Source: Alphaproteobacteria bacterium (GTDB lineage: Bacteria; Pseudomonadota; Alphaproteobacteria; UBA7985; JAUIBT01). From it: DNA of 64,000 nt. The translations under genes and the position numbers were made by a program. The notes under the pieces are model-generated. The model saw only the letters and a program-made list of their open reading frames with translations, was not told the DNA's origin and made no database searches. The DNA lies in NCBI GenBank assembly GCA_030428565.1, contig JAUIDR010000007.1, positions 18,504-82,503 on the forward strand, in the 5' to 3' direction. Of the stretch, positions 7,023 through 57,822 are shown piece after piece. Position 1 is the stretch's first letter, and each line of letters starts with the position of its first letter.

Positions 7023-7314
7023 AGGCTCTTTGGGTCTGATCTGAGGTTAGGAAGGGGTGACGCTGCGGGCGGCCCAGCGGGACGACCTGTTTGCGGTGCT
7101 AGAAAAGCGGAACCAGTAAAGGGGAACCAGCGAGGACTGCCAATTGTTGCCAGCATAGCATGACCGCTGAACCTGCCGTGCCAAGATTGCGCCGTGCGTC
7201 CAAATGCGGCGGGGCCTGTCGGGCGCTGTGCCTGCAGGCAAACTTGCATTCTTTTGCGCTAAGCGCCATGTCAGAAGCAATCAAGTTTCATTTACGCTGA
7301 CAAGAGGAACAGCC

Positions 7315-7563
7315 ATGCAAGGCCCCCGAATTTTTGACGATATGGCGCGCGTAGCCCAAGGCGCGGTTGGTGCCGCCAGCGGCGTTCGCACCGAAATCGA
7401 AGCTTTGGTCCGCCAGCGGATGGAGCGCCACTTGGACAAGATGAACCTGGTCAGCCGCGAAGAGTTTGATGTGGTCAAGGAAATGGCCGAGCGCGCACGC
7501 CAGGAAAACGAGAACTTGAAGCAACGCTTGAGCGAATTAGAGCAACGCGTGCAGAACTTGTGA
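7315..7563 (+). CDS. accessory factor UbiK family protein (BMFP-like coiled coil)
   Basis: MQGPRIFDDMARVAQGAVG...VSREEFDVVKEMAERARQENENLKQRLSELE resembles Brucella BMFP/UbiK as I recall it. The ATG at 7315 is preceded by agaggaac. Confidence 0.7.
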   Translation: MQGPRIFDDMARVAQGAVGAASGVRTEIEALVRQRMERHLDKMNLVSREEFDVVKEMAERARQENENLKQRLSELEQRVQNL

Positions 7564-7915
7564 CGATGCAATCCTAGCGGGCGCGAAGTTTTGAACTTTC
7601 TCGTTTTGAATCAACGCTTTGCAAAATGAGGGCAAAATCGCAAATTTGGAAGGAATAAGGCGCAAGCGGCAAATTTTAGGCGGCTAGGCGTCCTTATTCG
7701 CGAGCATGTGCTAACTTCTGGCTGTTATTCATCCCGGCTTATTCACAAGCATCCACTAGGTTTTCCCAAGCACGGGGGCCTTGAGGCAGAAGAGCTTGTG
7801 AGGCTCTACTCTCCAAAGTTGTCAGGCTGCATTTTTTTTTGACAGCGAGTCGGCGAACCCGGACCTTGGCTGTGGGTCGCAACCGTGCCGGCCCTTTTTC
7901 GCGCACTCTAATTTA

Positions 7916-9405: not shown

Positions 9406-10203
9406 TTAGAGCAAGCCTAAATCTTCGTCGCTGGCATAGGGCGGGCCGTACTTGTGGCGCGGTGGCATCGGGCGTGTTTGCCAGTTGGGCTCAAACACGA
9501 GGCTTGAGACCTTGCGGCCAGGCAAAAGGCCGCCTGTACCTAGGCCTTGGGCATAGTCGTAATAGAGCTTGGCGATTTCTTCAAAACAGACTTGTTGGGC
9601 CATCGGCGCCTTCAAACAAGCGTCTTTCCATCGCTGGACGCGCCCGAAACCTCTATCCGGTAAGATAAAGTCCTCGTAATAATCCAGGAACCAAAAGCGC
9701 TGGAATAAGGGCGTGAAGACAACTTCAGCAAAGCCGAAGCTCTCGAACAGGAAATCGCCGCTTGGGTTTATGTCGTTTAGATCTTGGTCAAGGCCGCGAT
9801 AGGCCGCCATCAAGCGTTCGCTAAAATCCGCGCGCTTATCGCGATCCTGGTTCAAGATCATCCCATAGCCAGCCGCGGTAAATGCCGGTTCGTGGCGCAG
9901 CAAGCTAGCCTCTAGCGCGCGTCGCCAGGGGTCTGGCTGTCGGATCGAGGCCGTTCCAATTGTCAGATCCAGGTACTCCAGGATGATCAGGCTCTCTTTC
10001 AAGATACGCCCATCCGGCAATTCCAGAGCGGGCAGGGCGGTCGTGCCCTTCATCTTGGCGAGCAAGGCAGGATCGCGCGGCTTGGTGATGTCTACCACGT
10101 TAAAATCAACGGCTTCGGCCATGCCCTTCATGGCCAGCATGATTTCGATCCGCTGGGAAAAAGGACAGACTGGTATGTGGTGGAGCAGCGGTTTGGCGGT
10201 CAT
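9406..10203 (-). CDS. glutathione S-transferase family protein
   Basis: Thioredoxin-like N-domain with CPFSQR. LPALELPDG..L.ESLIILEYLD. Helical C-domain. Confidence 0.7.
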   Translation of the reverse strand: MTAKPLLHHIPVCPFSQRIEIMLAMKGMAEAVDFNVVDITKPRDPALLAKMKGTTALPALELPDGRILKESLIILEYLDLTIGTASIRQPDPWRRALEASLLRHEPAFTAAGYGMILNQDRDKRADFSERLMAAYRGLDQDLNDINPSGDFLFESFGFAEVVFTPLFQRFWFLDYYEDFILPDRGFGRVQRWKDACLKAPMAQQVCFEEIAKLYYDYAQGLGTGGLLPGRKVSSLVFEPNWQTRPMPPRHKYGPPYASDEDLGLL

Positions 10204-10227
10204 GCAGCTGAGCGGTGGGTTTGCGAT

Positions 10228-10299
10228 TTGCCGGACTAGTTTGAATTGCCGGACTAGTTTGAATTGCCGGACTAGTTTGAATTGCCGGACTAGTTTATT
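10228..10299. repeat. 18-bp tandem repeat x4 (ttgccggactagtttgaa); the last copy diverges at its end
   Basis: Direct reading. Three perfect copies plus one variant. Each unit carries CTAG. It sits 25 nt upstream of the GST start and 5 nt after the stop of the upstream gene. Confidence 0.9.
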
Positions 10300-10303
10300 G
10301 GGG

Positions 10304-11128
10304 CTAGTTGATCGGCGCTAGCAAAGCGGGGGCTGTGACCAACTGACGGACATCGTGTGAGTGCTCTTCTTCGAAGACGCTGCCCATTGCGGCCCAGCGG
10401 TGCAATGAAGCAATGTCCAACTTGGCGCATTGCGGGCGCACGCTCCAGGTCACTTGGTAGGGCGAGCAGTTTTGTTGGTCAAAGCTGGGTCCGGTTGTCG
10501 AGCCTGCATAGACCACCGGCGCCCCGCCCGATTGCGGCAGCCCTTTGGGTTGCGGGCGGCCGTCAACGCGATGGCCAGCGTAAGTAAAATCAGCAAAATC
10601 AAGGGCCTGTTCGTCGTTGACCAGCAAAAAGACCTGGGCCTCAACGCGCAGTTCCGGGTTGGCGCAGGCATCGCTCACGCAGGCGCCAAGGCCCTTGCCA
10701 GGCTCGACCGCGCAGCTTGTGTAGACCCAATGGACTTCAATAGAATCGCCAAGTTTGACACCGTGATAGGCGCCGTGGCCGTGGGTCGGGTCTTCCAGTT
10801 CTTCGGCTGTTAGAGTGGCGCTGTTATTGCATTTGTAACCGCCTTGCTCTTCTGTGGAGACAATGGCGTAGCCGGGGCCTTTGTGCTCAGCATTTGTATG
10901 GGTGTGAATGTTGCAAAGGCTCAGAGCGTCGGCGGCAGGGGCAAAGGAATATGCGGTGGTGTTGAGACCCGCCGTGTTGGCAATATCCCGCGGGCTCTGC
11001 GGGCCGTAGCCCTGGCAAAGGTCTTGGGCGGTTGCAGCGCTCCCAAGGGCGAGCGCCAGGCCAGTGGCAAGCCATCCGCTGTTTATCCGGCTTTGCTTGT
11101 TGGGTTGACGGCGGATTGATAGCAGCAT
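10304..11128 (-). CDS. secreted protein with a carbonic-anhydrase-like His motif pattern (possibly delta-class-like CA; uncertain)
   Basis: The ATG at 11128 is preceded by gaggt. Signal peptide MLLSIRRQPNKQSRINSGWLATGLALALGSAATAQ. GPQSPRDI, NIHTHTNAEH and IEVHWVYT resemble the QSPI / HxH..EH / ElHlVH pattern of alpha-CA, but with different spacing. Confidence 0.4.
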   Translation of the reverse strand: MLLSIRRQPNKQSRINSGWLATGLALALGSAATAQDLCQGYGPQSPRDIANTAGLNTTAYSFAPAADALSLCNIHTHTNAEHKGPGYAIVSTEEQGGYKCNNSATLTAEELEDPTHGHGAYHGVKLGDSIEVHWVYTSCAVEPGKGLGACVSDACANPELRVEAQVFLLVNDEQALDFADFTYAGHRVDGRPQPKGLPQSGGAPVVYAGSTTGPSFDQQNCSPYQVTWSVRPQCAKLDIASLHRWAAMGSVFEEEHSHDVRQLVTAPALLAPIN

Positions 11129-11270
11129 GATAGCGACCTCGCGGTTCTGGTGTCGGGCAGGGTTGTCTTGGGTTTGAGGCTGGACACGCACAGGAATTTG
11201 GCCCTTACTCAACCCGGCAAGCATGACAGCCTTGCCCTGGATTGCCGCGCAAGGCAAGGCCCAGAGAAGA

Positions 11271-11315
11271 AATGACCAGGGCAACAATGACCAGGGCAAC
11301 AATGACCAGGGCAAA
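11271..11315. repeat. 15-bp tandem repeat x3 (aatgaccagggcaac)
   Basis: Direct reading. It lies in the divergent intergenic region between the CA-like gene and hyi. Confidence 0.85.
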
Positions 11316-11354: not shown

Positions 11355-12134
11355 ATGCTCAAACTATCGGCCAATCTGGGGCTGTTGTGGCGCGAGCGTA
11401 GTCTGGCTGAAGCGATGCAAGCCGCTGCTTGGGCGGGTTTTGAAGCGCTGGAGCTACACTTCCCCTACGATCTGCCGCCCGCCACGGTGGGGCACGCGCT
11501 GGAGCAAGCCGGTCTGCCGCTACTGGGGCTGAATACGGCGCCGGGCGATCAGCCGGGTGATTTCGGTCTGGCAGCGCTGCCGGGGCGCGAGGCTGAGGCG
11601 CGGGCGGCCATCGACCAGGCTCTGGTCTATGCCAAAGCGCTGGGCGCGCGTTCGGTCCACGTCATGGCGGGCAAAGCGGCGGGCGCGGCGGCGCGCAATG
11701 CCTTTATCGAAGCGCTGGCCTATGCCACCAAAGAAGCCGAGGCGTCGCGGTTGAACATCCTGATCGAGCCGCTGAACGACCGCGACCTGCCGGATTATTT
11801 TTTGACCGATTTGAATGAGGCGCGGGACATCCTCCAGGCGGTGGCTGCGCCCAATTTGAAGATCATGTACGATTGCTATCATCGCCAGATCATGCGCGGC
11901 GATCACCTGGCCCAGATCAGGGCGGCCCTGAGTGACATCGGGCATATTCAATTCGCAGCGGTACCCGACCGCGGCGAGCCCGATCAAGGCGAAGTCAACT
12001 ATCGTTGGTTGCTGCCCGCGATCCAAGACCTTGGCTATGGCGGCTGGTTTGGTGCGGAATACCGCCCGCGCGGGACCATGAACGAAGGCCTGTCTTGGCT
12101 GCAAGACTGGCGTGATGCGGGGCTGTTGGCATGA
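11355..12134 (+). CDS. hyi: hydroxypyruvate isomerase family TIM-barrel protein
   Basis: MLKLSANLGLLW start typical of Hyi/OtnI. The ATG at 11355 is preceded by aaggagg. IEPLN, YDCYH, GWFGAEYRP. Confidence 0.8.
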   Translation: MLKLSANLGLLWRERSLAEAMQAAAWAGFEALELHFPYDLPPATVGHALEQAGLPLLGLNTAPGDQPGDFGLAALPGREAEARAAIDQALVYAKALGARSVHVMAGKAAGAAARNAFIEALAYATKEAEASRLNILIEPLNDRDLPDYFLTDLNEARDILQAVAAPNLKIMYDCYHRQIMRGDHLAQIRAALSDIGHIQFAAVPDRGEPDQGEVNYRWLLPAIQDLGYGGWFGAEYRPRGTMNEGLSWLQDWRDAGLLA

Positions 12135-12250
12135 GGCTCCCTAACCGGGCCGGGGCGCCTGCGCGCGCTGCTGGCCCGATTATAGTCGGCCGTCATGGAA
12201 CATTGCAAAACAAGCAGGACTTTGGTCGGCAGCCTGGTGTCACAAGGTCC

Positions 12251-12466
12251 CTATTTGCAGGCCTGCGCGTACTCGATCCACTTCCCGCCGATTTCCAGGC
12301 ACCGTTCCTTGCTGCCATAATCGCAGAGCTTGTATTCTTTGAGCCATCGTCCACCATGATCGTAGCAAGAATCGTCCGGGCCAAGAATGAAAATAAGTGC
12401 GACATAGGCAAAGACAAGGAAGACCAAGACCGCCAAAATTGATTTTAGCAAGAAACGAAAAACCAT
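12251..12466 (-). CDS. small membrane-anchored Cys-repeat protein (hypothetical)
   Basis: 71 aa. N-terminal TM segment LLKSILAVLVFLVFAYVALIFIL, then two copies of C-x3-GG-[KR]-W-x6-C. It starts 6 nt after the SAA-like gene. The sequence is AT-richer than its surroundings. Confidence 0.5.
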   Translation of the reverse strand: MVFRFLLKSILAVLVFLVFAYVALIFILGPDDSCYDHGGRWLKEYKLCDYGSKERCLEIGGKWIEYAQACK

Positions 12467-12472
12467 AGTTCG

Positions 12473-12895
12473 TCACCAGTATTTTGGGTGCATGGCACCT
12501 GGGCGCAATGGCTCGCAAAGTTTGCTCGCGTCGGTATGACGATACTTGCGCCCGAGGTCGCGACCAAATTGATTGGCGAAACGATCGGCCTTGGAGTCGT
12601 TCTCTTCTCCTTTAAACCAATTCATTGCGGGATCATGCACCTCTCGCCCCCAACTGATGATCTTCGCGGTCGCTTCACCAACGGGCCCCAGTTGGGTCGC
12701 CTGCGCATTGGCCTTGCAGTGATAGTAGTTGTCGCCGCCCTTGTAGCCGGCGCGCTTCATCATTCTGTAATTCTTGATAAAAAGGGCAGTTGCCATAGCG
12801 GCTTCATAGACACCACCATTGCCACCAGAAAATGGCAGTCTTTCCGAGGACCTATGGGGTTCGTATGGGGGGACATAAAGGGGACGTTTTTCCAC
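12473..12895 (-). CDS. serum amyloid A (SAA) family protein, bacterial homologue
   Basis: Ungapped match to vertebrate SAA as I recall it: GVYEAAMATALFIKNYRMMKRAGYKGGDNYYHCKANAQATQLGPVGEATAKIIS vs [54 protein letters not shown]. Also DSKADRFANQFGR vs DSLADQAANEWGR, and LRPGAMHPKYW vs FRPAGLPEKY. Confidence 0.8.
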   Translation of the reverse strand: MEKRPLYVPPYEPHRSSERLPFSGGNGGVYEAAMATALFIKNYRMMKRAGYKGGDNYYHCKANAQATQLGPVGEATAKIISWGREVHDPAMNWFKGEENDSKADRFANQFGRDLGRKYRHTDASKLCEPLRPGAMHPKYW

Positions 12896-13036
12896 GATTG
12901 TTCTCCGTGTTAGTCTCGTTTTCCGGGATGGCGCACGATAGATGGGAACAATACAAGAACAATTGCGTCAAATCAAGCGTGTTTAATTTAAGTAAAACTA
13001 CTCTTTCGCACAGCTGATTGGTCTAAGATTAGGCAG

Positions 13037-14212
13037 CTAGTTCCCGCGCTGGCCCAACCAATCGCCCATGCGCTCCAGCGCCCGTGCAATGTTCGCTTCC
13101 GAATTGGCAAACGACAGCCGAACAAAGCCCTCTCCAGCGGTGCCGAAGGAGGTGCCCGCGATCGTCGCAACACCGGCCTCATTCAGCCAGCCATCTTGCA
13201 GCGCAGCCGCGCTGATGCCGGTTTCTTGGACGTTGGCGAAGGCGTAAAAGGCGCCTTGTGGCAGAATGGAGGAGACGCCGGGCAAGGCGTTCAAGCCCGC
13301 ATGCACCAAATCGCGACGTTTGATAAAGGCCTGGCGCATGGTCTCGACGGGGTTCTGATCGCCGGTCAGCGCCGCAACGCCCGCTAGTTGGGTCGGGGCG
13401 TTGACGCAAGAATGAATGTTGATCGCCAGACGCTCGGCTTTGTCGATCAGGCCGTCTGGCCAGTAACCCCAGCCCAAGCGCCAGCCGGTCATAGCGTAGG
13501 TCTTGGACCAGCCGTCCAATATGATAAGGCGGTCGCGTAGGCTCTCGTAGCCCAGCAGGGAGACGAATGGCTGGTCGCCCAGTGTGAGGCGCGAATAGAT
13601 TTCATCGCTCATCACCACCACGTCGGGGTGGTCTTCCAGGCCTTTGACGAGGGCTTCGATCTCCTCGGGCTTGGCCATGCCGCCGGTGGGATTGCCTGGA
13701 GAGTTGAGGATTATCAACGATGTATCGGGACGAATTTTCGATAAAATTTCTTCGGCGGAGAAGGAAAAGCCGTTGTCCTCGGGCAGGCTATAGGGGATGG
13801 GCTCGGCTCCGGTGTAGGCCACCATCGAGCGATAGATAGGAAAGCCGGGGTCGGGATAGAGGATCGAGCGACCAGGCTGGCCCAACAGCATCATGGCAAA
13901 GGCCATGGTCACTTTCCCGCCGGGTACAATCAAAATATTGTCCGGCGAGACCGCAACGCCGCGGTGCTGGTCAATGTCGTCTGCTACAGCCTGGGTCAAG
14001 GCAGGCATGCCGCGCGCGGGCGTGTAGCCGTGGTGGCCATCGCGCAAGGCTTTGATCGCCGCCTCAACGATGTTTGGCGCTGTCTTAAAGTCGGGCTGAC
14101 CGATGCCCAAGTTGATGATGTCCTTTCCTTCGGCGCTGAGTTTGGCAGCGCGCGCGAGAACGTCGAAGGCGGTTTCAGTGCCGAGTTTGCCGATAGCATC
14201 TGAAATCAACAT
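13037..14212 (-). CDS. pyridoxal phosphate-dependent aminotransferase (class I, aspartate/aromatic type)
   Basis: NLGIGQPDF, NSPGNPTG, SKTYAMTGWRLGW (PLP lysine), RLSFA. Confidence 0.9.
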   Translation of the reverse strand: MLISDAIGKLGTETAFDVLARAAKLSAEGKDIINLGIGQPDFKTAPNIVEAAIKALRDGHHGYTPARGMPALTQAVADDIDQHRGVAVSPDNILIVPGGKVTMAFAMMLLGQPGRSILYPDPGFPIYRSMVAYTGAEPIPYSLPEDNGFSFSAEEILSKIRPDTSLIILNSPGNPTGGMAKPEEIEALVKGLEDHPDVVVMSDEIYSRLTLGDQPFVSLLGYESLRDRLIILDGWSKTYAMTGWRLGWGYWPDGLIDKAERLAINIHSCVNAPTQLAGVAALTGDQNPVETMRQAFIKRRDLVHAGLNALPGVSSILPQGAFYAFANVQETGISAAALQDGWLNEAGVATIAGTSFGTAGEGFVRLSFANSEANIARALERMGDWLGQRGN

Positions 14213-15276: not shown

Positions 15277-17601
15277 ATGTCAAAAACCGTTCCAAATCAA
15301 AGCATTGCAGGCAAGTTCGGCTTCGGTCAGCCCGTTCGTCGGGTGGAAGATACGCGATTTGTAACCGGCCATGGTTGTTATTCAGACGATGTGGCGCTGG
15401 AGGGCGCTTTGACGGGCTACGTGCTGCGTTCGCCTTACGCTGCCGGCCGAATCGTGACGCTAAATGTTGATGATGCACGCGATGCGGCTGGGGTTCACCT
15501 GGTCATGACCGGCGAGGAATTGCAGAAAGACAATACCAACCACCTGAAGTGCGGCACGTTGGTCAAACAGCCCGATGGCAGCACCATGTACGAGCCTCAG
15601 TTCCCAGTCTTGGCGGTCGACCGGGTCTATCACGTCGGCCAGGCGGTGGCCTTCATTGTTGCCGACAGCTTGAACGATGCCAAGAACGCTGCGGAAATGA
15701 TCGAATTCGACGTGGAAGAGAGCGATGCCGCGCCTGATTTCTGCACAGCACTCGACGCGGGCCAACCGAAGGTTCACGACGCGGTGGCGGGCAATCGCGC
15801 CTTTGAGTGGCGCCACGGCGACCAAAGCGCGAGCGAGGCGGCATTTGCCAAAGCTGCCCATGTGGTCGAACTGACCCTAATCAATAACCGAATTATCTCA
15901 AACCCCATGGAGCCGCGGATTGCGATTGCCGAATGGGATGAAGAGACGCAAAAGCTGACCATGACCGCCAATACACAGGGGGGGTGGCCTCTAAAATCGC
16001 GTCTAGCTAAGGATTTTCTAAAGCTGCCTAGCGAGCAAGTGCGCGTTGTGACCCCCGACGTGGGGGGCGGCTTTGGCACGCGTGCCTTTCCTTGCCCAGA
16101 ACAGCCCATGGTTTGCCTGGCTGCACGCGCGCTGAAGCGTCCGGTCAAGTGGGTGGCAGAGCGCTCAGAGAACATGCTGACCGATTTGGGCGGCCGCGCG
16201 CACCTGTCGACGGCTCGGTTGGCGCTGGACGAAAACCATAAGATTACGGGCCTGGATATCCATTTGCGCGCCGACTTGGGCGCATTCTTGTCCGATGCTG
16301 CGCCCTTCATTCCGACCGGCGCCATGCTGAAAGTGGCCACCGGCGTCTATGATGTGCCAGCGCTGAACGTTTTGGTTGAAGGTGTCTATACCAACACCAC
16401 ACCGGTTGATGCCTACCGTGGCGCTGGGCGTCCTGAGGCCATCTACCTGATGGAACGCTTGATGGACAAGGCGGCTAACAGTCTGGGCCAAGATCGCGTC
16501 GAGTTTCGCCGCAAGAACTTCATCCCAACCGAAGCCATGCCCTATACCGCAGCGTCTGGCACCACTTACGACGACGGCAATTTCAACCTGGTGCTGGATG
16601 ACGTGCTGACGCGCGCCGACTGGGCGGGCTTTGAAGCACGGCGTCAGGCATCGGCTGCCAAGGGCCTAAAGCGCGGCATTGGCCTTTGCTACTACATCGA
16701 GTCCACGCTGGGCGCGCCCAATGAGACCTGCGCGGTCACATTCATGGGCGACGGCAAGCTGGAGTTTACCGTCGGAACACAATCCAACGGGCAGGGGCAC
16801 GAGACCGCCTTTGCGCAGCTCATGGCCGACCGCTTGGGCGTTGATATCGACCAGGTGCGCATGATCCAGGGCGATACCGACCGTATCCCAACCGGCGGTG
16901 GCACTGGGGGCTCGCGCTCCATGATTACCCAAAGCACCGCGATCAATGGTGTGGCGGATCAGATCATCGAAAAGGCAAAGGCTCTGGCGGCTGAAGACTT
17001 CGAGTGCGCCGTTGAAGATATGCGTTTTGAAGCGGGTGAGCTGAGCGTGGCGGGCACCGACCGCCGTACAAGCATCATGGGCTTGGCAGAAAAGCATCCA
17101 GGGGCGCTGGACGACACCGCTACGACCAAGATTCGGGACAATTCTTACCCGAACGGCTGCCACGTGGCTGAGGTCGAAATCGATCCTGAGACCGGCCAGA
17201 CCCAGGTTGTTAACTACACCATCGTTGATGATTTCGGCGTGTTGCTGAACCCCATGCTGGTCGAAGGTCAGGTCCACGGTGGCGTCGTGCAGGGCTTGGG
17301 CCAAGCGCTGTGCGAACAGGTGGTGTTCGATGAAGGCGGTCAGCTTGTGAACGGCTCGTTTATGGACTACGCCATGCCGCGCGCTGATACCATGCCGCAC
17401 ATGGATTTCCATTATACCGAAGAAGTGCCCTGCACCACGAACGATATGGGCGCTAAGGGCTGTGGCGAAGCGGGCTCAATTGCATCGCCCGCCGCGGTCA
17501 TTAACGCGATGATCGACGCGCTCAAGGCCGACGGTATCGCCGAATTGGATATGCCCGCGACCCCGCAAGCGGTGTGGCGCGCCCTGCAAAAGGCGGCCTA
17601 A
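15277..17601 (+). CDS. xanthine dehydrogenase family molybdopterin-binding subunit, form II CoxL-like
   Basis: 774 aa. [17 protein letters not shown]-terminus. Active-site loop AYRGAGRPE (the form II CoxL signature rather than form I VAYRCSFR). C-terminal GAKGCGEAG. Confidence 0.85.
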
Positions 17602-17778
17602 GCGCGGGCGCACACAACGCGCTTACACGACGAGCAAAGGTCGGTCTGTTGCCCTTCAGTTGGGAGCCTCGGATCGGCCTTTTGTTTTGTCGATTTGGCG
17701 CAAGGCAGCCGCTGCCCGCATTGCCTCCTACAGATGCAGCAGGCTGGGCTGCTCTGCCGATTGGCGCCGCGCTGGCCA

Positions 17779-17918
17779 GAATCGGCAGGTCAGAATCGGC
17801 AGGTCAGAATCGGCAAGCCAGAACCGGCAAGCCAGAACCAGCAAGCCAGAACCGGCAAGCCAGAACCGGCAAGCCAGAACCGGCAAGCCAGAACCGGCAA
17901 GCCAGAATCGGCAGGCCA
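17779..17918. repeat. 14-bp tandem repeat x10 (gaaccggcaagcca and variants)
   Basis: Direct reading. Ten contiguous units. Five are identical and the flanking units differ at 1-3 positions. All six frames are open across it. Confidence 0.95.
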
Positions 17919-18086
17919 GGCGCAGAACCTTGGCGCCGCCAAAAGGTGGCAGCAGCGTTGCATCTTGCAATGCAAACACTACTTTTGATTGTTAAACGCA
18001 TCGTTTTTCGTCAGTCTTTGAGATCAAAGGAAAACGGGCCCCGGCAAAAGGTGGCTCGCAGTTCACCGCGCGCGGTGAGGGGGCGA

Positions 18087-20000
18087 ATGACGATGCAAGA
18101 CAAAATATCAATACTAAAGAAGTGCCTGCAAATTTGGCTGGCTGGAATAGCGACTTTCGTGGCAAGCGCCTCCGGTGCGCTGGCCGACGGCAGCGCCGCT
18201 TCGAAGTACACGGCCGCAACGGATGCTTACGCTGCGGCGGTGGCCACCCCGACGGGGCAAGTACCCGCAGACATCTGGGACTTGCTAGACGGCCAGGCCG
18301 GAGCCAAGGGGGCATTGGGTTATGCCCGCTCTGACCTCCCCACGATCCTGCCGCCAATTGCCAAGGCAGCCACAGCGGTCACATCGTCTGAACAGAGCGC
18401 TCTGCCACGCACTTACCAGGCCGCGACGCTCGACTTCGTCGCCCTTCTGAATGATCTGGAAGCTCGCCAGCCCCGGCGTACGCCTCAAGTATCGCCAACG
18501 CATTTCCCGGAATCGCGAGTTCCAGCGGCACAAATTCACCTGGTCTCGTTGAGCCCTAGCCCTGCGCCGACGCAACAGGGCGCAGCCCCCTTGCCGCCGT
18601 CAGGGTTGGCGCCGGCACTGGCAAGAGCCTTGGCGCGCGACGGGCTTGGGCTTAAGAAATCGCAGTTAGCGCCGGGCCAGCCAGGCCAAGCCCAGATCGC
18701 CGCCCTGTCAACCCGGCTGTCCCACAGGCACGAGCAGCTTCAAAGCTACCGCCAGCAGCTTACAGAGCTGGGTCAGGATGTGCTGGCAGCCAAAATCCGC
18801 GCAACTGCGCTTGAGGCCGATAAGAGAGCCTTGGCACAAGAGTTAGCGGCGAAGCAGAGGAAAATTGACTCGCAGCTTTTGCCCGACCTGCGCGCAGCGC
18901 GTGCTGGTCTGTTGAGCTTAAATGCGGAACACCGCGCCCTGGTCGCCTCTCACGACCAGGCGCGCGCAGCATTGAGCGCCGCAGAGCATCGCATCGCCAC
19001 CGAACTGGAGCCCCAAATCGCTGCCCTGAAAGAAAGAGAAGGGGCGGAGGTTAGCAGCCTTTTTGACCGCTTGGAGGCCCTGAGCCTGGAACGCGAAATT
19101 GCGATATTTCAGTCTCGGCAATCCGCGGTGGCCATGGAGGAGATGAGCAGCCAGCTTAATCGCGACCTCAAGCCCAAGGTGGTTGATTTAAGCCGACAGC
19201 TCGCCAGCCTGGGCTTGGAGCGGGATACGCTTCGCCAACAGGTTCAGTCGCTTACCCAGGCGATTTATGTCGAATACCGCCCGATGCTGACGGCCTTGGA
19301 GAGCAAAAATGTAGCCTTGCAAAACAGCAATACCAAGCTGGAGAACCAAATTACCCGCCTGGAACAAGAATTGCAGCGTCGCGCCCGGCAAGTGCGCGCC
19401 AAGCAAGGCCACGTCGATCCGGCGCGCTGCACAGCGCTGGTACAACGCCAGGCCGATCAGTTGGAGGCCATGACCAGCCTGCTAGCTCTGTTCCAGCTAG
19501 AGCAGTTGGCGCCCAAGGATTTACGCGTCGTAGACTCGCGTGACGCCTCGGCTTTCGATTTTGTTTTCAACGATTTAGCGGCTGGATGGTTGTTAGAACG
19601 GCGCATTGATTCTTTCGTGTCACCCGATCAGCAAAAGATGGCTCTGTTGGATAGCAAGAGCAAAAAGCGGCGTTGGTCGCCGCTGGGCAGCGACAATGTG
19701 CTGGCGCTGCAGCAAGCGAGCAATACCTGGCTCAAGAGCCGCGGGCTGACCCTTGCTAGAATTGGCTTGCCCGCCGCCAAGGGCTGTTCAGGGCGGCTCT
19801 GCTTGACGGGCGTCGTGGACAAACGTACGCGCATCCTAGCCTCCTATATTTTTGATCGTGATCCAGGTTTTTTCCCGGGCGGGGCATCCGCGCGCGCGGC
19901 CCAAAACCTAGACCAAGATCGTACACAACAGCCGCTCCTGGGGCTGAAACCAGGTGCGCTGACCGAAGGCCTCATGCGTGCCTGCCAAGGGCGCGGTTAA
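18087..20000 (+). CDS. secreted Pro-rich / long coiled-coil protein (hypothetical)
   Basis: The ATG at 18087 is preceded by gaggggg. Signal peptide ...LAGIATFVASASGALADG. A Pro-rich segment is followed by about 280 aa of heptad-like Q/L/E/R/A-rich sequence. I recognise no family. Confidence 0.55.
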   Translation: MTMQDKISILKKCLQIWLAGIATFVASASGALADGSAASKYTAATDAYAAAVATPTGQVPADIWDLLDGQAGAKGALGYARSDLPTILPPIAKAATAVTSSEQSALPRTYQAATLDFVALLNDLEARQPRRTPQVSPTHFPESRVPAAQIHLVSLSPSPAPTQQGAAPLPPSGLAPALARALARDGLGLKKSQLAPGQPGQAQIAALSTRLSHRHEQLQSYRQQLTELGQDVLAAKIRATALEADKRALAQELAAKQRKIDSQLLPDLRAARAGLLSLNAEHRALVASHDQARAALSAAEHRIATELEPQIAALKEREGAEVSSLFDRLEALSLEREIAIFQSRQSAVAMEEMSSQLNRDLKPKVVDLSRQLASLGLERDTLRQQVQSLTQAIYVEYRPMLTALESKNVALQNSNTKLENQITRLEQELQRRARQVRAKQGHVDPARCTALVQRQADQLEAMTSLLALFQLEQLAPKDLRVVDSRDASAFDFVFNDLAAGWLLERRIDSFVSPDQQKMALLDSKSKKRRWSPLGSDNVLALQQASNTWLKSRGLTLARIGLPAAKGCSGRLCLTGVVDKRTRILASYIFDRDPGFFPGGASARAAQNLDQDRTQQPLLGLKPGALTEGLMRACQGRG

Positions 20001-29993: not shown

Positions 29994-30659
29994 CTAAGGC
30001 GCGAGGCAGACCAGGCGCATGATGGTCTGTAGATTAAAGTCCAAGCGCTCATTCAGGGCCTGGGGATCGGCCAGGTTGGTCTTGTAGATAATGCTGCCGG
30101 TGTATTGGTTGGTTAGATAATAATAGCCGATGGCGGCGATTGTTATGTTGAGCTGAACAGGGTCTATGCCCGGGCGAAAGACGCCGCTTTTTACGCCCCG
30201 ATCCAACAAATCGGCGACCATATCGACCAAGCGGCGGGTGGCGCTGTCGATGCGGGTCGACTTTTTCAGGTGCTTGGCGCGGTGCAGGTTCTCACTGTTG
30301 ACCAGGGTGATGAACTCAGGATTTTTCAAATAATAGGTCCAGGTGAAACGCACCAGTTTTTCCAGCGCGTCTTTGGGCGCCATTTCGTCCAGGGCCAGCT
30401 TTTGTTCGGCGGCGCGAATATCTAGGTAGGCGTCTTCGAGCACGGTCTGAAATAGCTGCTCTTTACTGCCAAAATAGTGATAAATCATGCGCTTGTTGGC
30501 GTCGGCGCGCTCGGCAATTTCATCCACCCGCGAGCCGCTCAAGCCATTTTTTGCAAACTCTTTTTTGGCAGCTTTCAAGATGCGTTTTTGCGTGGCCTCG
30601 GCGTCTCTAGGGCGTGGGCTTGTGTCTTGATTCTTCGGCATTTGTTGCTTTCTGTCCAC
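29994..30659 (-). CDS. TetR/AcrR family transcriptional regulator
   Basis: N-terminal HTH ILKAAKKEFAKNGLSGSRVDEIAERADANKRMIYHYFGSKEQLF. Confidence 0.85.
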   Translation of the reverse strand: MDRKQQMPKNQDTSPRPRDAEATQKRILKAAKKEFAKNGLSGSRVDEIAERADANKRMIYHYFGSKEQLFQTVLEDAYLDIRAAEQKLALDEMAPKDALEKLVRFTWTYYLKNPEFITLVNSENLHRAKHLKKSTRIDSATRRLVDMVADLLDRGVKSGVFRPGIDPVQLNITIAAIGYYYLTNQYTGSIIYKTNLADPQALNERLDFNLQTIMRLVCLAP

Positions 30660-30773
30660 TGGCTGTCATCGCCGCAGACCATAGGGGTGATTTTGGCAAA
30701 GTGCAATTGCAGGCCGCGCCTAGAAATCACTCTTTGCCTAGAATCTATCTTGACAAGTTTGAAACTAACGATG

Positions 30774-30787
30774 TAACTAGTTAGTGC
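30774..30787. promoter_or_regulatory. operator-like perfect palindrome TAACTAGTTA followed by GTGC, 18 nt after a TTGACA box (30750-30755)
   Basis: 10-bp perfect palindrome in the tetR / sugar-ABC divergent region. Its geometry relative to the -35 box matches that of the site at 28755. Confidence 0.45.
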
Positions 30788-30874
30788 GTTAACCGAAACA
30801 GATTGCCTCGATCTTTTCGATCGTCAGCATGATCGCGACGGCTGGATGCATCTTGTGGAACATGGGAGGAATGC

Positions 30875-31972
30875 ATGTCATTCATCAAAAAATTCGTAGA
30901 GCGGGAGACGATCAATCGACGTCAGTTCCTGCTTGCCAGCATGGCGGGTGTCGGCACGCTTGCGGCTTCTGGTCTGGTGCCGTCGCCGGCCTTGGCTGCG
31001 GGCGGCCCAACCGTTGCTTGGAGCTATCGCAACCGCACCAACCCCTATTGGAACGCTATCGTTTCTGGCGGCGCCCGCTTCGTTGAGAGCCTGGGCATGT
31101 CGGGCGATGATCTGGTGCACTTGCTGAACGAGGGATCGTCGGAGAAGTCTTTGGCGGACGTGAAGGCGCTGTTGTCCAAGACCGGCGGTAACTTGGCGCT
31201 GGGTATCGACACCAACGATGCACCCAATGCACGCCCGGTGGTAGAGGCCGTACAGGCTGCGGGCGGCCATGTGGTGACAATCTGGAACAAGACCGAAGAC
31301 CTGCACCCTTGGGATTTTGGCGATAACTACGTGGCGCACATTTCTTGGTCGGATACTAAGCCCGCCGAAACAGTGGCCAACATTCTAATTGACGCCATGG
31401 GTGGTTCTGGCGGCATCGTGGGTCTGGGCGGCATTCCGTCGAACAATCCGGCGATCGAACGCCGGCAGGGCCTGGATAACGCGATGGCGGCCAACGGCAA
31501 TACTGAACTGTTGGACTATCAAGCTGCCGATTGGGATACGCAAAAAGCCGCTGAGATCATGTCGTCTTATCTGACGCGCTTTGGCGACGAGATTAAGGGC
31601 GTGTTCTGTGCCAATGACACCATGGCTTTCGGCGCCATCGAAGCGTTGCGCGCTGAAGGACTAGCCGGTCAAGTGCCCGTCGTTGGCTATGATGGCACCG
31701 CACAAGCCGCTGAATTCATCAAGAGCGGTGAGATGCAAGGCACGGTCTATACTGATCCGCCTTGGGCCGGTGGTATCGCCTGTTCGCTGGCTTACCACGC
31801 CGCGATTGGCACCTTTAAACCGTCTGACGAGCCCAAAGGCCACCGCGAGTTCTTTGGCCCGGCTTTGGTGGTGTCGAAATCCGATGTCGATCAGTTCGTC
31901 GCTCAACACATCGACGGCTCGCCTGATGTGGATTGGCAGGACTTCTGGGGTCCGACCACGCCAGCAGCCTAG
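30875..31972 (+). CDS. sugar ABC transporter substrate-binding protein (Tat-type signal)
   Basis: RRQFLLASMAGVGTLAASG twin-arginine signal. Periplasmic-binding-protein type I pattern (VGYDG, ANDTMAFGAIEAL). Confidence 0.8.
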   Translation: MSFIKKFVERETINRRQFLLASMAGVGTLAASGLVPSPALAAGGPTVAWSYRNRTNPYWNAIVSGGARFVESLGMSGDDLVHLLNEGSSEKSLADVKALLSKTGGNLALGIDTNDAPNARPVVEAVQAAGGHVVTIWNKTEDLHPWDFGDNYVAHISWSDTKPAETVANILIDAMGGSGGIVGLGGIPSNNPAIERRQGLDNAMAANGNTELLDYQAADWDTQKAAEIMSSYLTRFGDEIKGVFCANDTMAFGAIEALRAEGLAGQVPVVGYDGTAQAAEFIKSGEMQGTVYTDPPWAGGIACSLAYHAAIGTFKPSDEPKGHREFFGPALVVSKSDVDQFVAQHIDGSPDVDWQDFWGPTTPAA

Positions 31973-54773: not shown

Positions 54774-56693
54774 TTACCGAAACCCGTTATTCATCAGCGC
54801 ATCGGCCCGGTCTTGGGCTCTGCGCAGTGCGTCGCGCGGCGGGGTTACACCGCGCAGCATGTCGTGAAACTCCTCGCCGCAGATCTGGATGATGTCGCAG
54901 ATCTCAGGGACAGGGGGGCGAGGCCAGAATTGCAGTTCGTCACGCCAAGACATGGCGTCAACATCTTCAAAGATGGGCGAGAGGCGGCGCACTTCGGGGT
55001 CGATTCCCACCGAGTAGCGAGCGTTGGTGCGGCTGCCATTCTGGACGTACATTTTTTGGGCCTGTGGCGAGGTGAAGACCAGCAGCGCTTCCACGGCTGC
55101 GGGCACGCGTTCGGCCGGCAAATTGGCAGGAATGCCCATCATGTAACCCCCAACCGGCGCGATCGGCGTGCCGCCAGGTGCGGTGGGGTGGGGCAGGTAG
55201 CCGGTGGAATTGGCAGCCGGGCTGGAGGCATCCAGCTCAAAGTAAGGCGCCAACAGGGTGTAGCCATAGGCCATCGGTACGGCGCCAGCCGCATAGGGGC
55301 GCACGCGCTCGTACCAGGACATGGACAAGATGTCGGGCGGCGAGTAACGCAGCAGCTCCATCAGGAATTCAGCCGCTTCTAGGCCGGCTGGCGTGTCGAT
55401 TGTGGGGTGATAGTTCCCGGTTGCCAGGTTGTCGGTCTCAAAGCCGCCGGCGATTTTGGGCAGATTCAAGACCGACTGGCCGAAATCAGCCAGGGCCATT
55501 AAGAATGTGTGACCTAGCGCTGTGCCGCGGGCGGCGTTCCAGGCAATGCCATAGCGCCCGGCGCTGGGCTTGTGGAAATGGCGGGCGGCGTTCAACAGTT
55601 CGTCGGTCGTGCGCGGCGGCTCAAGCCCGGCGTCAGCGAACAGATCTTTTCGGTAGAACAACAGCTCGGGCGTGGTCTGCGCAGGCACGCCATAGGGGCG
55701 CCCGCCCCAGTAGGTCGCCTTCCAGCCCGCGGCGTGAAAATCGGCTGAGTCCAAGCGGGCGATGTCCATCGCCTCATCCAAGGGCATGAGTACGCCGGTC
55801 TCGGCGAATCCGCCGACCCATGGCAAATCGACCGCTACAATATCATAGCGACTTGACTTGCGTTCGGCGTTCTTGACGGCTTCTTCACGCAGACGGTCGA
55901 TAGAAAAGGCGCGTTGGTGGATTTGGGTGCCAATGACTTGTTCAAACTGGCGCTTCAGGTTGTCCATGACCATGAAGGTGGGATCGCCGTGGACCAAGAC
56001 GCGAATCCCGCCTGAGATCTTGAGCGGCTCGCCCAATACCTGCAACGGCGGGATGGAGCGCGCTTCGAGGTATGAGCCGCCAAAGAAGTAGTCGTTGCTC
56101 TCGCTTTGCGCTAAGGCGCCGCCGAATTGGTTGGCGGCCAGGCGCTGTATGCGGCTTGAAAGCTGCATCCATTGATTGAGCAGTTTGGGGCTGGGGTGAA
56201 GCGAGAAGCTGCGACCGCTCTTGGTGCGGGGGCGCTGCTCGACCAGGCCGGCCTCAACCATCTCTTTCAAGCGGCGGGTGGCGGTGGCGTAGGGCACGTG
56301 ACTCGCACCAATCAGCGAGGTTGGCGTAATGACCTTGGCCTCCAAGTGGCCGCGCATCAGGTGCAAAAACATGCGGAAAAATGGATTCGGCGCAGAGATC
56401 TCAAGAATATCGTCCAGTTCGTCGCCAAAATCCTCCAGAAAGGCCAAGATCTGGAGCATCTCGGTCTTCGCTTGCGGCGAAACCGGCATCTTGCGATGAT
56501 GATGTGGATCCAAAGCGTTCATACGAGGCGCGCGATCTCTTTCCTGATCTCTGCTGGGGCGATTGGCGGCACCTGATGAAATGTCCAAATTGGGGGTTTT
56601 ATCGAGAGACATAACAGGCGTTGTCCTAAATTGTTCAAAATGACATCGAGAGTGTACGGGAAACATATCCAGTTTGGATGTCAAATCATCCAA
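54774..56693 (-). CDS. winged-HTH (MarR-like) domain fused to a family-1 solute-binding-protein domain; putative cytoplasmic regulator (start uncertain)
   Basis: N-terminal ITPTSLIGASHVPYATATRRLKEMVEAGLVEQRP. C-terminal about 430 aa with SBP_bac_1-type motifs (YDIVAVDLPWVGGFAETGVLMPLD, GRPYGVPAQTTPELLFYRKDLFADAGLEPPRTTDEL). No signal peptide. Confidence 0.7.
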   Translation of the reverse strand: MDDLTSKLDMFPVHSRCHFEQFRTTPVMSLDKTPNLDISSGAANRPSRDQERDRAPRMNALDPHHHRKMPVSPQAKTEMLQILAFLEDFGDELDDILEISAPNPFFRMFLHLMRGHLEAKVITPTSLIGASHVPYATATRRLKEMVEAGLVEQRPRTKSGRSFSLHPSPKLLNQWMQLSSRIQRLAANQFGGALAQSESNDYFFGGSYLEARSIPPLQVLGEPLKISGGIRVLVHGDPTFMVMDNLKRQFEQVIGTQIHQRAFSIDRLREEAVKNAERKSSRYDIVAVDLPWVGGFAETGVLMPLDEAMDIARLDSADFHAAGWKATYWGGRPYGVPAQTTPELLFYRKDLFADAGLEPPRTTDELLNAARHFHKPSAGRYGIAWNAARGTALGHTFLMALADFGQSVLNLPKIAGGFETDNLATGNYHPTIDTPAGLEAAEFLMELLRYSPPDILSMSWYERVRPYAAGAVPMAYGYTLLAPYFELDASSPAANSTGYLPHPTAPGGTPIAPVGGYMMGIPANLPAERVPAAVEALLVFTSPQAQKMYVQNGSRTNARYSVGIDPEVRRLSPIFEDVDAMSWRDELQFWPRPPVPEICDIIQICGEEFHDMLRGVTPPRDALRRAQDRADALMNNGFR

Positions 56694-56868
56694 TATGAAT
56701 TACTTTTGCGCATCTTGCTTGGAAGGCCGCGGCCATAGTGCGTTCAGTCGTCAAAGGCAGCGGGCCAACTCGCTGGAAATGCGCTGCAGACGATTTAAGT
56801 CGCTAGGAAGGCTTTGTGCCCAGAAGCGACAGCACTAAACTCAGGAAATCTCGGGAGAGGAGACCCTA

Positions 56869-57822
56869 ATGACCCGTTTTACCCTTGCTGCTACAACCGC
56901 CGTTGCGGCTTTTGCCATTGCTGGTGCAGCCACTGCTGGTAGCTACAAAATCGGCATCACCCAGAACAACGTGGGCGTCGACAGTTATCAGACTACTTAC
57001 GAAAAAGCCTTTATCGCAGCTTCTGATGCGAACGCCGACGTTGAAGCGGTTGTTCTGGATGCTGGCGGCGACGTTGCGCGTCAGATTGCGCAAATGGAAG
57101 ACCTGATTCAGCAAGAAGTTGACGCCATCATTATCTGGCCGACCAACGGCGAAGCGGTTATCCCCGCGGTTCGTAAGGCCCACAAGGCTGGCATTCCGGT
57201 GATCGTAACCAACTCGAACATCGCAGAAGCAGGCTTCCCTTTCGTTAAGTCTTTCTCTGGCCCCGATAACATCACCCAAGGTTCACGCTCTGCTGAGATC
57301 ATGTGTGACAAGTTCAAGGCCATGGGCATTGAGAACGAAGCGCAGGTCGTGCACATCACTGGTCAGCCCGGCTACACCACCGCGATCGAGCGTGCGAAAG
57401 GCTTTGAAGACCGTCTGCCTGAAGTTTGCCCGAACGTGACTGTTCTGGACACTCAGCCCGGCGACTGGAACCGCGAAAAGTCTCAGAAAGTTATGGAAGC
57501 TTTCTTGGTCAAGTATGACGACATCGACGGCGTCTACGCTGGCGACGACAACATGGGCGTTGGCGCTCTGAACGCTGCTAAAGCGGCTGGCCGCGAAGGC
57601 ATCATCTTCGTCGGTGCGACCAACTTTGCGGTTGGCTACGAAGCCATGGAGCGTGGCGAATACTGGGGTTCAATCTACCAGTCTCCAGTTGACGATGCAG
57701 AAGCCGCATTGAAGACCGCGCTGGACGTGTTGAACGGCATGGACGTGCCCTTCCTGAACTACTTCGACACTCCGAAGATCACTCAGGACAACCAGTCTGA
57801 CTTCACTAAGCCGGTATTCTAA
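56869..57822 (+). CDS. sugar ABC transporter substrate-binding protein (ribose-binding-protein-like)
   Basis: Signal peptide MTRFTLAATTAVAAFAIAGAATAG. KIGITQNN, IPVIVTNS, VYAGDDNMGVGAL. Strong RBS gggagaggag. Confidence 0.85.
   Translation: MTRFTLAATTAVAAFAIAGAATAGSYKIGITQNNVGVDSYQTTYEKAFIAASDANADVEAVVLDAGGDVARQIAQMEDLIQQEVDAIIIWPTNGEAVIPAVRKAHKAGIPVIVTNSNIAEAGFPFVKSFSGPDNITQGSRSAEIMCDKFKAMGIENEAQVVHITGQPGYTTAIERAKGFEDRLPEVCPNVTVLDTQPGDWNREKSQKVMEAFLVKYDDIDGVYAGDDNMGVGALNAAKAAGREGIIFVGATNFAVGYEAMERGEYWGSIYQSPVDDAEAALKTALDVLNGMDVPFLNYFDTPKITQDNQSDFTKPVF

Follow-up and report, generated by a model that had tools for sequence, protein, structure and literature searches.

The stretch of DNA analysed here (64,000 nucleotides of contig JAUIDR010000007.1, assembly GCA_030428565.1; hereafter the window) comes from an alphaproteobacterium and carries an islet of 902 bp (positions 12135–13036), in which two adjacent genes probably form an interbacterial toxin–immunity cassette of the prok-SAA/Imm-SAA kind. 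The first gene (12473..12895, minus strand) encodes a stand-alone protein of 140 amino acids (aa) related to serum amyloid A (SAA). It starts with GTG, preceded at a distance of 5 nt by the ribosome binding site (RBS) GGAGAA (12901–12906). The second gene (12251..12466, minus strand) starts 6 nt past the stop codon of the first and encodes a 71-aa membrane protein, the candidate immunity protein. The islet is flanked by a hydroxypyruvate/2-oxo-tetronate-isomerase-like gene (hyi, plus strand, start probably 11355, end 12134) and, on the other side, by a class I/II aminotransferase gene (13037–14212, minus strand). Its remaining parts are the non-coding region upstream of the module (12896..13036, minus strand, 41.8% GC), which is 81% identical to that of the sister species (locus L001) with the last 14 nt fully conserved, and the spacer between the converging immunity and hyi genes (12135..12250, 63.8% GC), which lies within the indel described below.

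The initial annotation, made from the sequence alone, had placed the 140-aa open reading frame (ORF) at 12473–12895, the gene of a 71-aa membrane protein 6 nt after it, and a stretch of about 0.9 kb of lower GC content between hyi and the aminotransferase gene. All three statements stood, and the strand (minus), missing from that annotation, can now be added. The GC content of the islet was 52.0% versus 59.0% in the window, within the lowest 0.9% of all 902-bp intervals. Codon usage deviated as well: the GC content at third codon positions (GC3) was 0.58 and 0.60 in the two module genes as compared with 0.70 ± 0.03 in 42 reference (long) ORFs (z = −3.8 and −3.3), and the z-scores of the codon adaptation index (CAI) were −2.6 and −2.0.

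The 140-aa protein matched the Pfam SAA profile (PF00277) with 68.2 bits at a gathering cut-off of 30.8 (E-value 8.9e-19, residues 31–119), and this was its sole Pfam match. A phmmer search against PDB sequences returned SAA chains exclusively, with mouse SAA3 (4q5g) as the best (E-value 2e-10), and an NCBIfam scan of both module proteins gave no match. The SAA homologue claimed in the initial annotation was thus confirmed, and the motifs quoted there, DSKADRFANQFGR and LRPGAMHPKYW, were both found in the protein. The alignment with vertebrate SAA, described as gapless, was ungapped across helices 1–3 only and required a gap of 3–4 residues after helix 3. An AlphaFold model built with a 31-sequence alignment (mean predicted local distance difference test, pLDDT, 82.8; predicted template modelling score, pTM, 0.76) gave the four-helix bundle anticipated earlier, with four long helices and a short fifth one predicted at residues 27–49, 54–68, 71–92, 98–117, and 123–126. 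Foldseek searches with this model yielded significant matches to mouse SAA3 and human SAA1 structures only (target-normalised TM-score 0.82–0.87, root mean square deviation 2.1–2.9 Å). The SAA domain spans residues 27–140. Residues 1–26 form the Pro-rich N-terminal extension noted before, also correctly, as devoid of a Sec signal: no hydrophobic signal-like segment was present in them, they were modelled as disordered (pLDDT 51–57 over residues 1–20), and no helix was predicted before residue 27.

The SAA domain of bacteria has been defined computationally as prok-SAA, a family of the Lipocone superfamily (Burroughs, Nicastro and Aravind, eLife 2025; PMC12419801); see also Zamocky and Ferianc 2023, cited there. 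Lipocones are predicted lipid-head-group phosphoesterases or transferases that were recruited as toxin tips, and the SAA-Wnt clade is marked by a fifth helix and an sNxxGR motif (PMC12419801). The ancestral active site was reconstructed as His/Glu/Asp plus one more acidic residue where helix 3 ends, the conserved polar positions being His in H2, Glu in H3, Asp/Glu at the end of H3, and Asp in H4 (PMC12419801). This H/E/D/D site and the sNxxGR motif, the defining marks of the SAW clade, were matched by the conserved residues of the window protein. The predicted active-site positions are H59, E85, D88, and D104, and the motif corresponds to A107-N108-Q-F-G111-R112. H59, E85, D88, D104, N108, and G111 were invariant and R112 nearly so in the 31-sequence alignment; in an alignment of 150 sequences the same positions were again invariant or nearly invariant. 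The 140-aa protein is a genuine SAA-family protein in which every predicted active-site position has been kept. The four cysteines of the toxin domain were retained or lost pairwise across the family (CCCC in 101 sequences, C--C in 9, -CC- in 4), which indicates disulfides C1–C4 and C2–C3. The window toxin shows the C--C pattern with C60 and C127 kept, so that a C60–C127 disulfide is probable.

To place the protein within its family, relatives were sought by an exhaustive HMMER search of 1.84 billion cluster representatives (E ≤ 1e-3), used instead of a word-indexed protein search that had yielded one relative only. The 634 matches were, with few exceptions, longer proteins that end in the SAA domain. 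The domains co-occurring in the top 150 matches were RHS repeats (21), RHS (13), YD-shell (9), PG_binding_1 (7), Phage_Mu_F (3), and eCIS_core (2), and a DPxG-type junction motif was present in 69 of them. The relatives of the window protein are mostly C-terminal toxin tips of Rhs, MuF, and peptidoglycan (PG)-binding proteins. We assign the window protein, by its profile and motif matches, to the prok-SAA family as a stand-alone member. Because its only N-terminal addition is the disordered 26-residue segment and no trafficking or delivery domain is fused to it, it is not classed as a polymorphic toxin in the strict sense. We likewise considered, and rejected, a classical orphan Rhs tip, as neither a DPxG junction nor Rhs-like sequence upstream was found.

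The vertebrate-type motif H[AG]RGN[YF] was absent from the top 69 matches and from 149 of the top 150; the sole metazoan-like match, at rank 70, carries it together with a signal peptide. Bit scores of the window protein reached 120–185 within its own subfamily versus 34–44 to PDB SAA chains. Since the nearest relatives are bacterial, transfer from animals was rejected and other bacteria are taken as the source. Nor is the protein a vertebrate-type acute-phase SAA (Met-SAA): it has no signal peptide, it has two conserved cysteines, and its top 69 matches lack the vertebrate-type motif.

The link between the toxin domain and the 71-aa protein was examined in 80 loci from other bacteria of many phyla, fetched by the SAA-domain pattern [GDR][AG]DKYFHC. 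This pattern does not take in the GGDNYYHC of the window, and the genus of the window was left out of the set. In 58 of the 80 loci the SAA-domain ORF was immediately followed, on the same strand, by a gene for a small membrane-anchored protein with one to three N-terminal membrane segments and a C-terminal C[LMIYS][DE]xGGxW-x(4-10)-C motif. Elsewhere the motif occurred only once in 783 kb read in six frames. The initial annotation had described a two-gene module and asked whether the small cysteine gene accompanies SAA homologues in other genomes; both the module and the co-occurrence proved real. A hidden Markov model (HMM) built from 54 single-unit immunity proteins and run against the six-frame ORFs of the window hit only the 71-aa ORF (E-value 2.9e-5, two domains), the next-best match having an E-value of 1.2. 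The 71-aa protein contains two tandem Imm-SAA units, at residues 34–52 and 57–72 (CYDHGGRWLKEYKLC and CLEIGGKWIEYAQAC), each built on the CxDxGGxW...C motif. Exactly four cysteines (C34, C48, C56, and C70) are invariant across the immunity proteins of the window's subfamily, as are two tryptophans. The type (iii) immunity domain of the published analysis likewise has four absolutely conserved cysteines, and 'TM+[TM+TM+]Imm-SAA' is listed there for Prok-SAA (PMC12419801). By motif, profile, and gene order, the 71-aa protein is of the cognate Imm-SAA immunity type.

The membrane anchor of the 71-aa protein lies at its N-terminus (about residues 2–28), and a single-sequence AlphaFold model consisted of a helix at 2–28 followed by short strands; a structure search with this model gave no PDB match. 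With positive charges before the membrane segment and acidic residues behind it, the protein is predicted to adopt an N-in, C-out topology, its cysteine domain lying in the periplasm. Together with the disulfide pair of the toxin, this periplasmic-type cysteine domain favours action outside the cytoplasm.

A second, unrelated candidate immunity type was seen behind Rhs-linked SAA toxins. At six loci (L004, L005, L006, L017, L061, and L063) a lipoprotein-like protein of about 138–161 aa with the motifs ...GWIP...NLDTNE.W... is encoded just downstream of the SAA-domain ORF; these proteins may represent the 'LP+Imm-BamE' entry of the PMC12419801 table.

The islet is an indel that was recently exchanged between lineages. 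A congener (L083), whose aminotransferase is 94% identical to that of the window, presents the empty site: homology to the window ends exactly at 13036 and resumes at 12134, with 155 unrelated bp in place of the 902-bp islet between the aminotransferase gene and hyi. Another relative (L084, aminotransferase 88% identical) was represented by a sequence too short to reveal whether the islet is present. The comparison with the sister species L001 delimited a tract of about 1.1 kb (11830..12910), spanning the 3' third of hyi, the spacer, and both module genes, in which sliding-window identity was 88–98% as compared with 66–90% outside. The synonymous divergence (dS) between the window and L001 was 0.157 in the toxin gene, 0.196 in the immunity gene, and 0.34 in the last 300 nt of hyi, versus 2.2 in the rest (5') of hyi and 1.0–3.3, which is saturated, in the other flanking genes. 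The dS of the module is thus 5–10 times below that of its flanks. The low dS and the high-identity tract suggest that the cassette was carried between lineages by recent homologous recombination, and recombination between the two species via the flanking genes is the simplest reading. The atypical composition argues that the cassette came originally from outside the genus. The empty site, the deviant GC3 and CAI, and a module dS of 0.16–0.20 against at least 1.0 in the flanks all support the horizontal acquisition put forward in the initial annotation. The ratio of nonsynonymous to synonymous divergence (dN/dS) was 0.09 for the immunity gene, 0.01–0.19 for the flanks, and 0.37 for the toxin gene, a value that could reflect relaxation and not diversification; the toxin is fast-evolving yet still constrained.

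Four metagenomes were compared over the region, and the islet was present in each, with no joints skipping it; the islet-bearing contigs came from aquaculture, biofloc, and wastewater samples. One wastewater metagenome (X9) contained two contig variants over 12035–12312, one identical to the window and the other with 22 differences and a 1-nt insertion, which suggests that two related strains or species, both with the module end, coexist there.

Five toxins form the subfamily of the window protein. The closest relative (P0001), from the sister species at the same site, is 89% identical, and the other three (P0002, P0271, and P0272) are 43–49% identical to the window toxin in a five-sequence alignment. 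All five are stand-alone, signal-less proteins of 140–154 aa with the C--C pattern, and all have a Pro-rich N-terminal extension of about 26–40 residues, in which no conserved motif beyond prolines was detected in this alignment (only M1, P5, and P21 are invariant). Each is followed by a gene for a membrane-anchored four-cysteine protein; the immunity gene stood directly downstream on the same strand at L001, L086, L087–89, and L090, as in the window. Four further subfamily modules lie in unrelated housekeeping contexts with GC3 below that of their flanks. A metagenome scan for this subfamily revealed one distant locus only, and a Pfam scan of the ORFs beside two stand-alone relatives (L047 and L058) was uninformative. 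The L086 module (10001–10724) is a second, paralogous one, found in the sister genome GCA_030432195.1 (contig JAUIHE010000014.1). It consists of a 154-aa SAA-like gene (P0271) and an 85-aa four-cysteine partner, adjoins guaA and guaB, and has a GC3 of 0.58 versus 0.77 for guaA.

Altogether, these data raise the hypothesis, which we consider likely, that the two genes are a toxin–immunity cassette directed against other bacteria. The bacterial SAA homologues had been regarded as of unknown function; this no longer holds, as the family has been analysed computationally (PMC12419801), the relatives are toxin tips, and the cysteine gene is of the cognate immunity type. The 140-aa protein would be a soluble Lipocone-fold enzyme acting at the periplasmic face on a membrane lipid, whose phosphate-linked head group it attacks, as may be extrapolated from TelC, PTDSS, and YfiM, the characterised members of the superfamily. 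Of the Lipocone toxins from polymorphic toxin systems, TelC alone has been characterised experimentally (PMC12419801), and pyrophosphatase activity on lipid-linked oligosaccharides was described for YfiM in a 2026 preprint. The most likely targets would be undecaprenyl-pyrophosphate-linked cell-wall precursors such as lipid II, and the toxin should be harmless in the cytoplasm of its producer. The 71-aa protein, held in the inner membrane by its N-terminal helix, would expose in the periplasm a four-cysteine domain, presumably stabilised by disulfides, that binds and blocks toxin arriving from sister cells. The whole cassette would behave as a small mobile islet, moving by homologous recombination through the flanking genes.

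Several observations weigh against this hypothesis. Toxicity and substrate are extrapolated by analogy with other members of the superfamily, and periplasmic action and neutralisation are inferred as well. A signal peptide is missing from the toxin, as are Rhs, PAAR, MuF, and PG-binding domains. When 30 of the 61 ORFs of the window were scanned with Pfam, none proved to be a secretion gene (type VI secretion system, T6SS; Rhs; or other); they were either housekeeping genes or unmatched. The soluble part of the immunity model was of low confidence (pLDDT about 62), and the toxin's dN/dS may reflect the relaxation mentioned above. A scan with the sigma-70 consensus detected no promoter-like site upstream of the SAA gene, no terminator was found, and none of the RNA-seq runs that were looked through contained the module genes.

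The lack of a fused delivery domain raises the question of how such a toxin would reach its target. It may be a cargo effector that Hcp, VgrG, or PAAR carries for a T6SS whose genes lie in another part of the genome, comparable to the Tse/Tsi pairs scattered in Pseudomonas. Effectors that are small, lack a signal peptide, and have a periplasmic immunity protein are typical of the cargo loaded onto Hcp, and the window toxin is both signal-less and small (15.6 kDa), with an immunity protein predicted to be periplasmic. Many relatives are Rhs/YD toxins, and T6SS is among the delivery routes of prok-SAA, listed as T6SS/Rhs, MuF, PG-binding fusion, and signal peptide with metallopeptidase (PMC12419801). 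However, neither the scanned ORFs of the window nor the surroundings of the four sister modules include vgrG, hcp, paar, an adaptor, or any other T6SS gene, and the N-terminus of the toxin matched none of the known T6SS markers tried. We regard this route as possible but, on balance, unlikely.

Alternatively, the toxin might be a diffusible bacteriocin, released by lysis or in vesicles, whose residues 1–26 serve as the receptor-binding and translocation segment. Colicin M is a small signal-less toxin with an unstructured N-terminus and a periplasmic lipid II target, and Cmi, which confers immunity to it, is a periplasmic protein with an inner-membrane anchor and a disulfide. The architecture of the module parallels this pair, and the Pro-rich extension has been kept in every member of the subfamily. 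It has also been argued that diffusible versions evolved in the SAA-Wnt branch (PMC12419801). On the other hand, the module has no lysis gene, the extension displays no conserved TonB-box-like motif, and the toxin bears no sequence relationship to colicin M, so that we hold this route to be doubtful.

The traits shared by the five subfamily members (stand-alone architecture, 140–154 aa, a signal-less Pro-rich N-terminus, and a four-cysteine two-unit immunity partner) may go further and define a separate class of minimal diffusible bacteriocins, so far undescribed, or an unrecognised export/import route set by the disordered N-terminus. This idea is speculative and rather improbable. If true, the cassettes are selfish islets that spread when homologous recombination takes place in the housekeeping genes that happen to flank them, and they offer the smallest natural system for testing the SAA fold as an enzyme.

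The same absence of a delivery domain would also be expected of a stranded or decaying cassette, in which the toxin is not deployed and the pair is kept for immunity against the prok-SAA toxins of neighbours or through addiction-like selfishness. The contrast in dN/dS between the toxin and the immunity gene is consistent with such a fate, and at other loci many short SAA ORFs lack a proper start and represent orphan tips within Rhs arrays. In the window, however, no trace of an Rhs core was found upstream, all catalytic positions are kept, dN/dS is well below 1, and the ORF is intact with an RBS in two species and at four further subfamily loci. Decay is thus improbable.

A non-toxic lipid- or retinol-binding protein, or a membrane-active housekeeping factor resembling the vertebrate SAA apolipoprotein, would agree with the lipid or retinol binding or action on membranes held possible in the initial annotation, and the fold is indeed that of retinol-bound mouse SAA3 (6py0). 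This reading was not otherwise supported by our data and is very improbable: the family context is overwhelmingly one of toxin tips with immunity genes; the catalytic-type polar residues are invariant; and the SAA gene, of atypical composition and recently exchanged, is dispensable, because the congener L083 has the empty site. Likewise very improbable is an intracellular stress or anti-phage effector acting from the cytoplasm on lipid-linked precursors: intracellular action has been proposed for some signal-less Lipocones, and stand-alone signal-less prok-TelC and Min-Wnt occur in putative antiviral contexts (PMC12419801), whereas the window toxin, itself signal-less, has a conserved disulfide pair, an Imm-SAA-type partner with a cysteine domain predicted in the periplasm, and no adjacent defence genes.

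The surroundings of the islet showed further peculiarities. Beyond hyi lies a gene for a delta-type carbonic anhydrase-like protein (about 10304–11200, minus strand; Pfam CA_like, E-value 8e-65), present also in L001 and absent from L083, where a GST gene directly follows hyi; this is a second indel beside that of the toxin islet. Perfect tandem repeats flank this gene on both sides in non-coding DNA, at 10228–10296 (18 bp × 3.8) and 11271–11314 (15 bp × 2.9), and mechanical ORF calling read them as peptide repeats at the ends of neighbouring ORFs. An 808-aa ORF (17574–20000, plus strand) had no Pfam match, nor is any Pfam family recorded for its counterparts in L001 (631 aa) and L083 (617 aa). 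A GC content as low as that of the toxin islet (51–52% in 902-bp intervals) was also recorded at about 7250–7900, 30000–30900, and 56350–57300.

The toxin–immunity cassette, taken as the probable identity of the two genes, may be compared with four known systems. Colicin M and Cmi offer an analogy only: a signal-less small toxin with an unstructured N-terminus, an anchored immunity protein, and a predicted target of lipid II type are common to both, whereas there is no sequence or fold relationship, and neither a receptor nor a TonB box or lysis gene was found in the present case. TelC–TipC of Streptococcus intermedius is closer. TelC belongs to the same superfamily, toxicity is in our case predicted, as for TelC, only in the extracytoplasmic compartment, the immunity protein is membrane-associated and extracytoplasmic, and cleavage of a phosphate linkage of a lipid head group is predicted, the substrate being lipid II for TelC. 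Unlike the window toxin, TelC falls in a different Lipocone clade and is an LXG substrate of the type VII secretion system (T7SS) of Gram-positive bacteria, and TipC is unrelated to the 71-aa protein.

Vertebrate SAA (SAA1 and SAA3; 4ip8, 4q5g, and 6pxz) shares about 110 residues at 29–33% identity with the window toxin, together with the four-helix bundle, the short fifth helix, and the C-terminal RPxxLPxKY tail. The animal proteins differ: they carry signal peptides, lack both cysteines and an immunity partner, and have been investigated as apolipoproteins and as binders of retinol. What serum amyloid A does biochemically has been a matter of debate for decades, and the Lipocone proposal of 2025 holds that its fold is that of a lipid-head-group enzyme inherited from bacterial toxins. 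The locus is a very compact test case for this proposal, with a 140-aa stand-alone toxin that has all predicted catalytic residues and a 71-aa immunity protein.

The prok-SAA/Imm-SAA systems (PMC12419801) are the kind, known already and computationally defined, to which the cassette belongs, and no new kind of system is added by it. The domain, the H/E/D/D positions, the sNxxGR motif, the downstream gene for a membrane-anchored protein with the cysteine motif, and the type (iii) four-cysteine immunity domain are all shared. The window copy differs in that it stands alone and has none of the delivery contexts listed for Prok-SAA, its toxin has lost one of the two family disulfides, and its immunity protein has two tandem units, whereas all 54 motif-bearing ones from other loci are single-unit proteins. 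This copy stands out for its signal-less, stand-alone toxin, its doubled immunity unit, and the clarity with which movement of the cassette can be read: the site is empty in one congener, two others share a recombination tract of about 1.1 kb, and the locus illustrates cleanly how a cassette of this type travels in nature.

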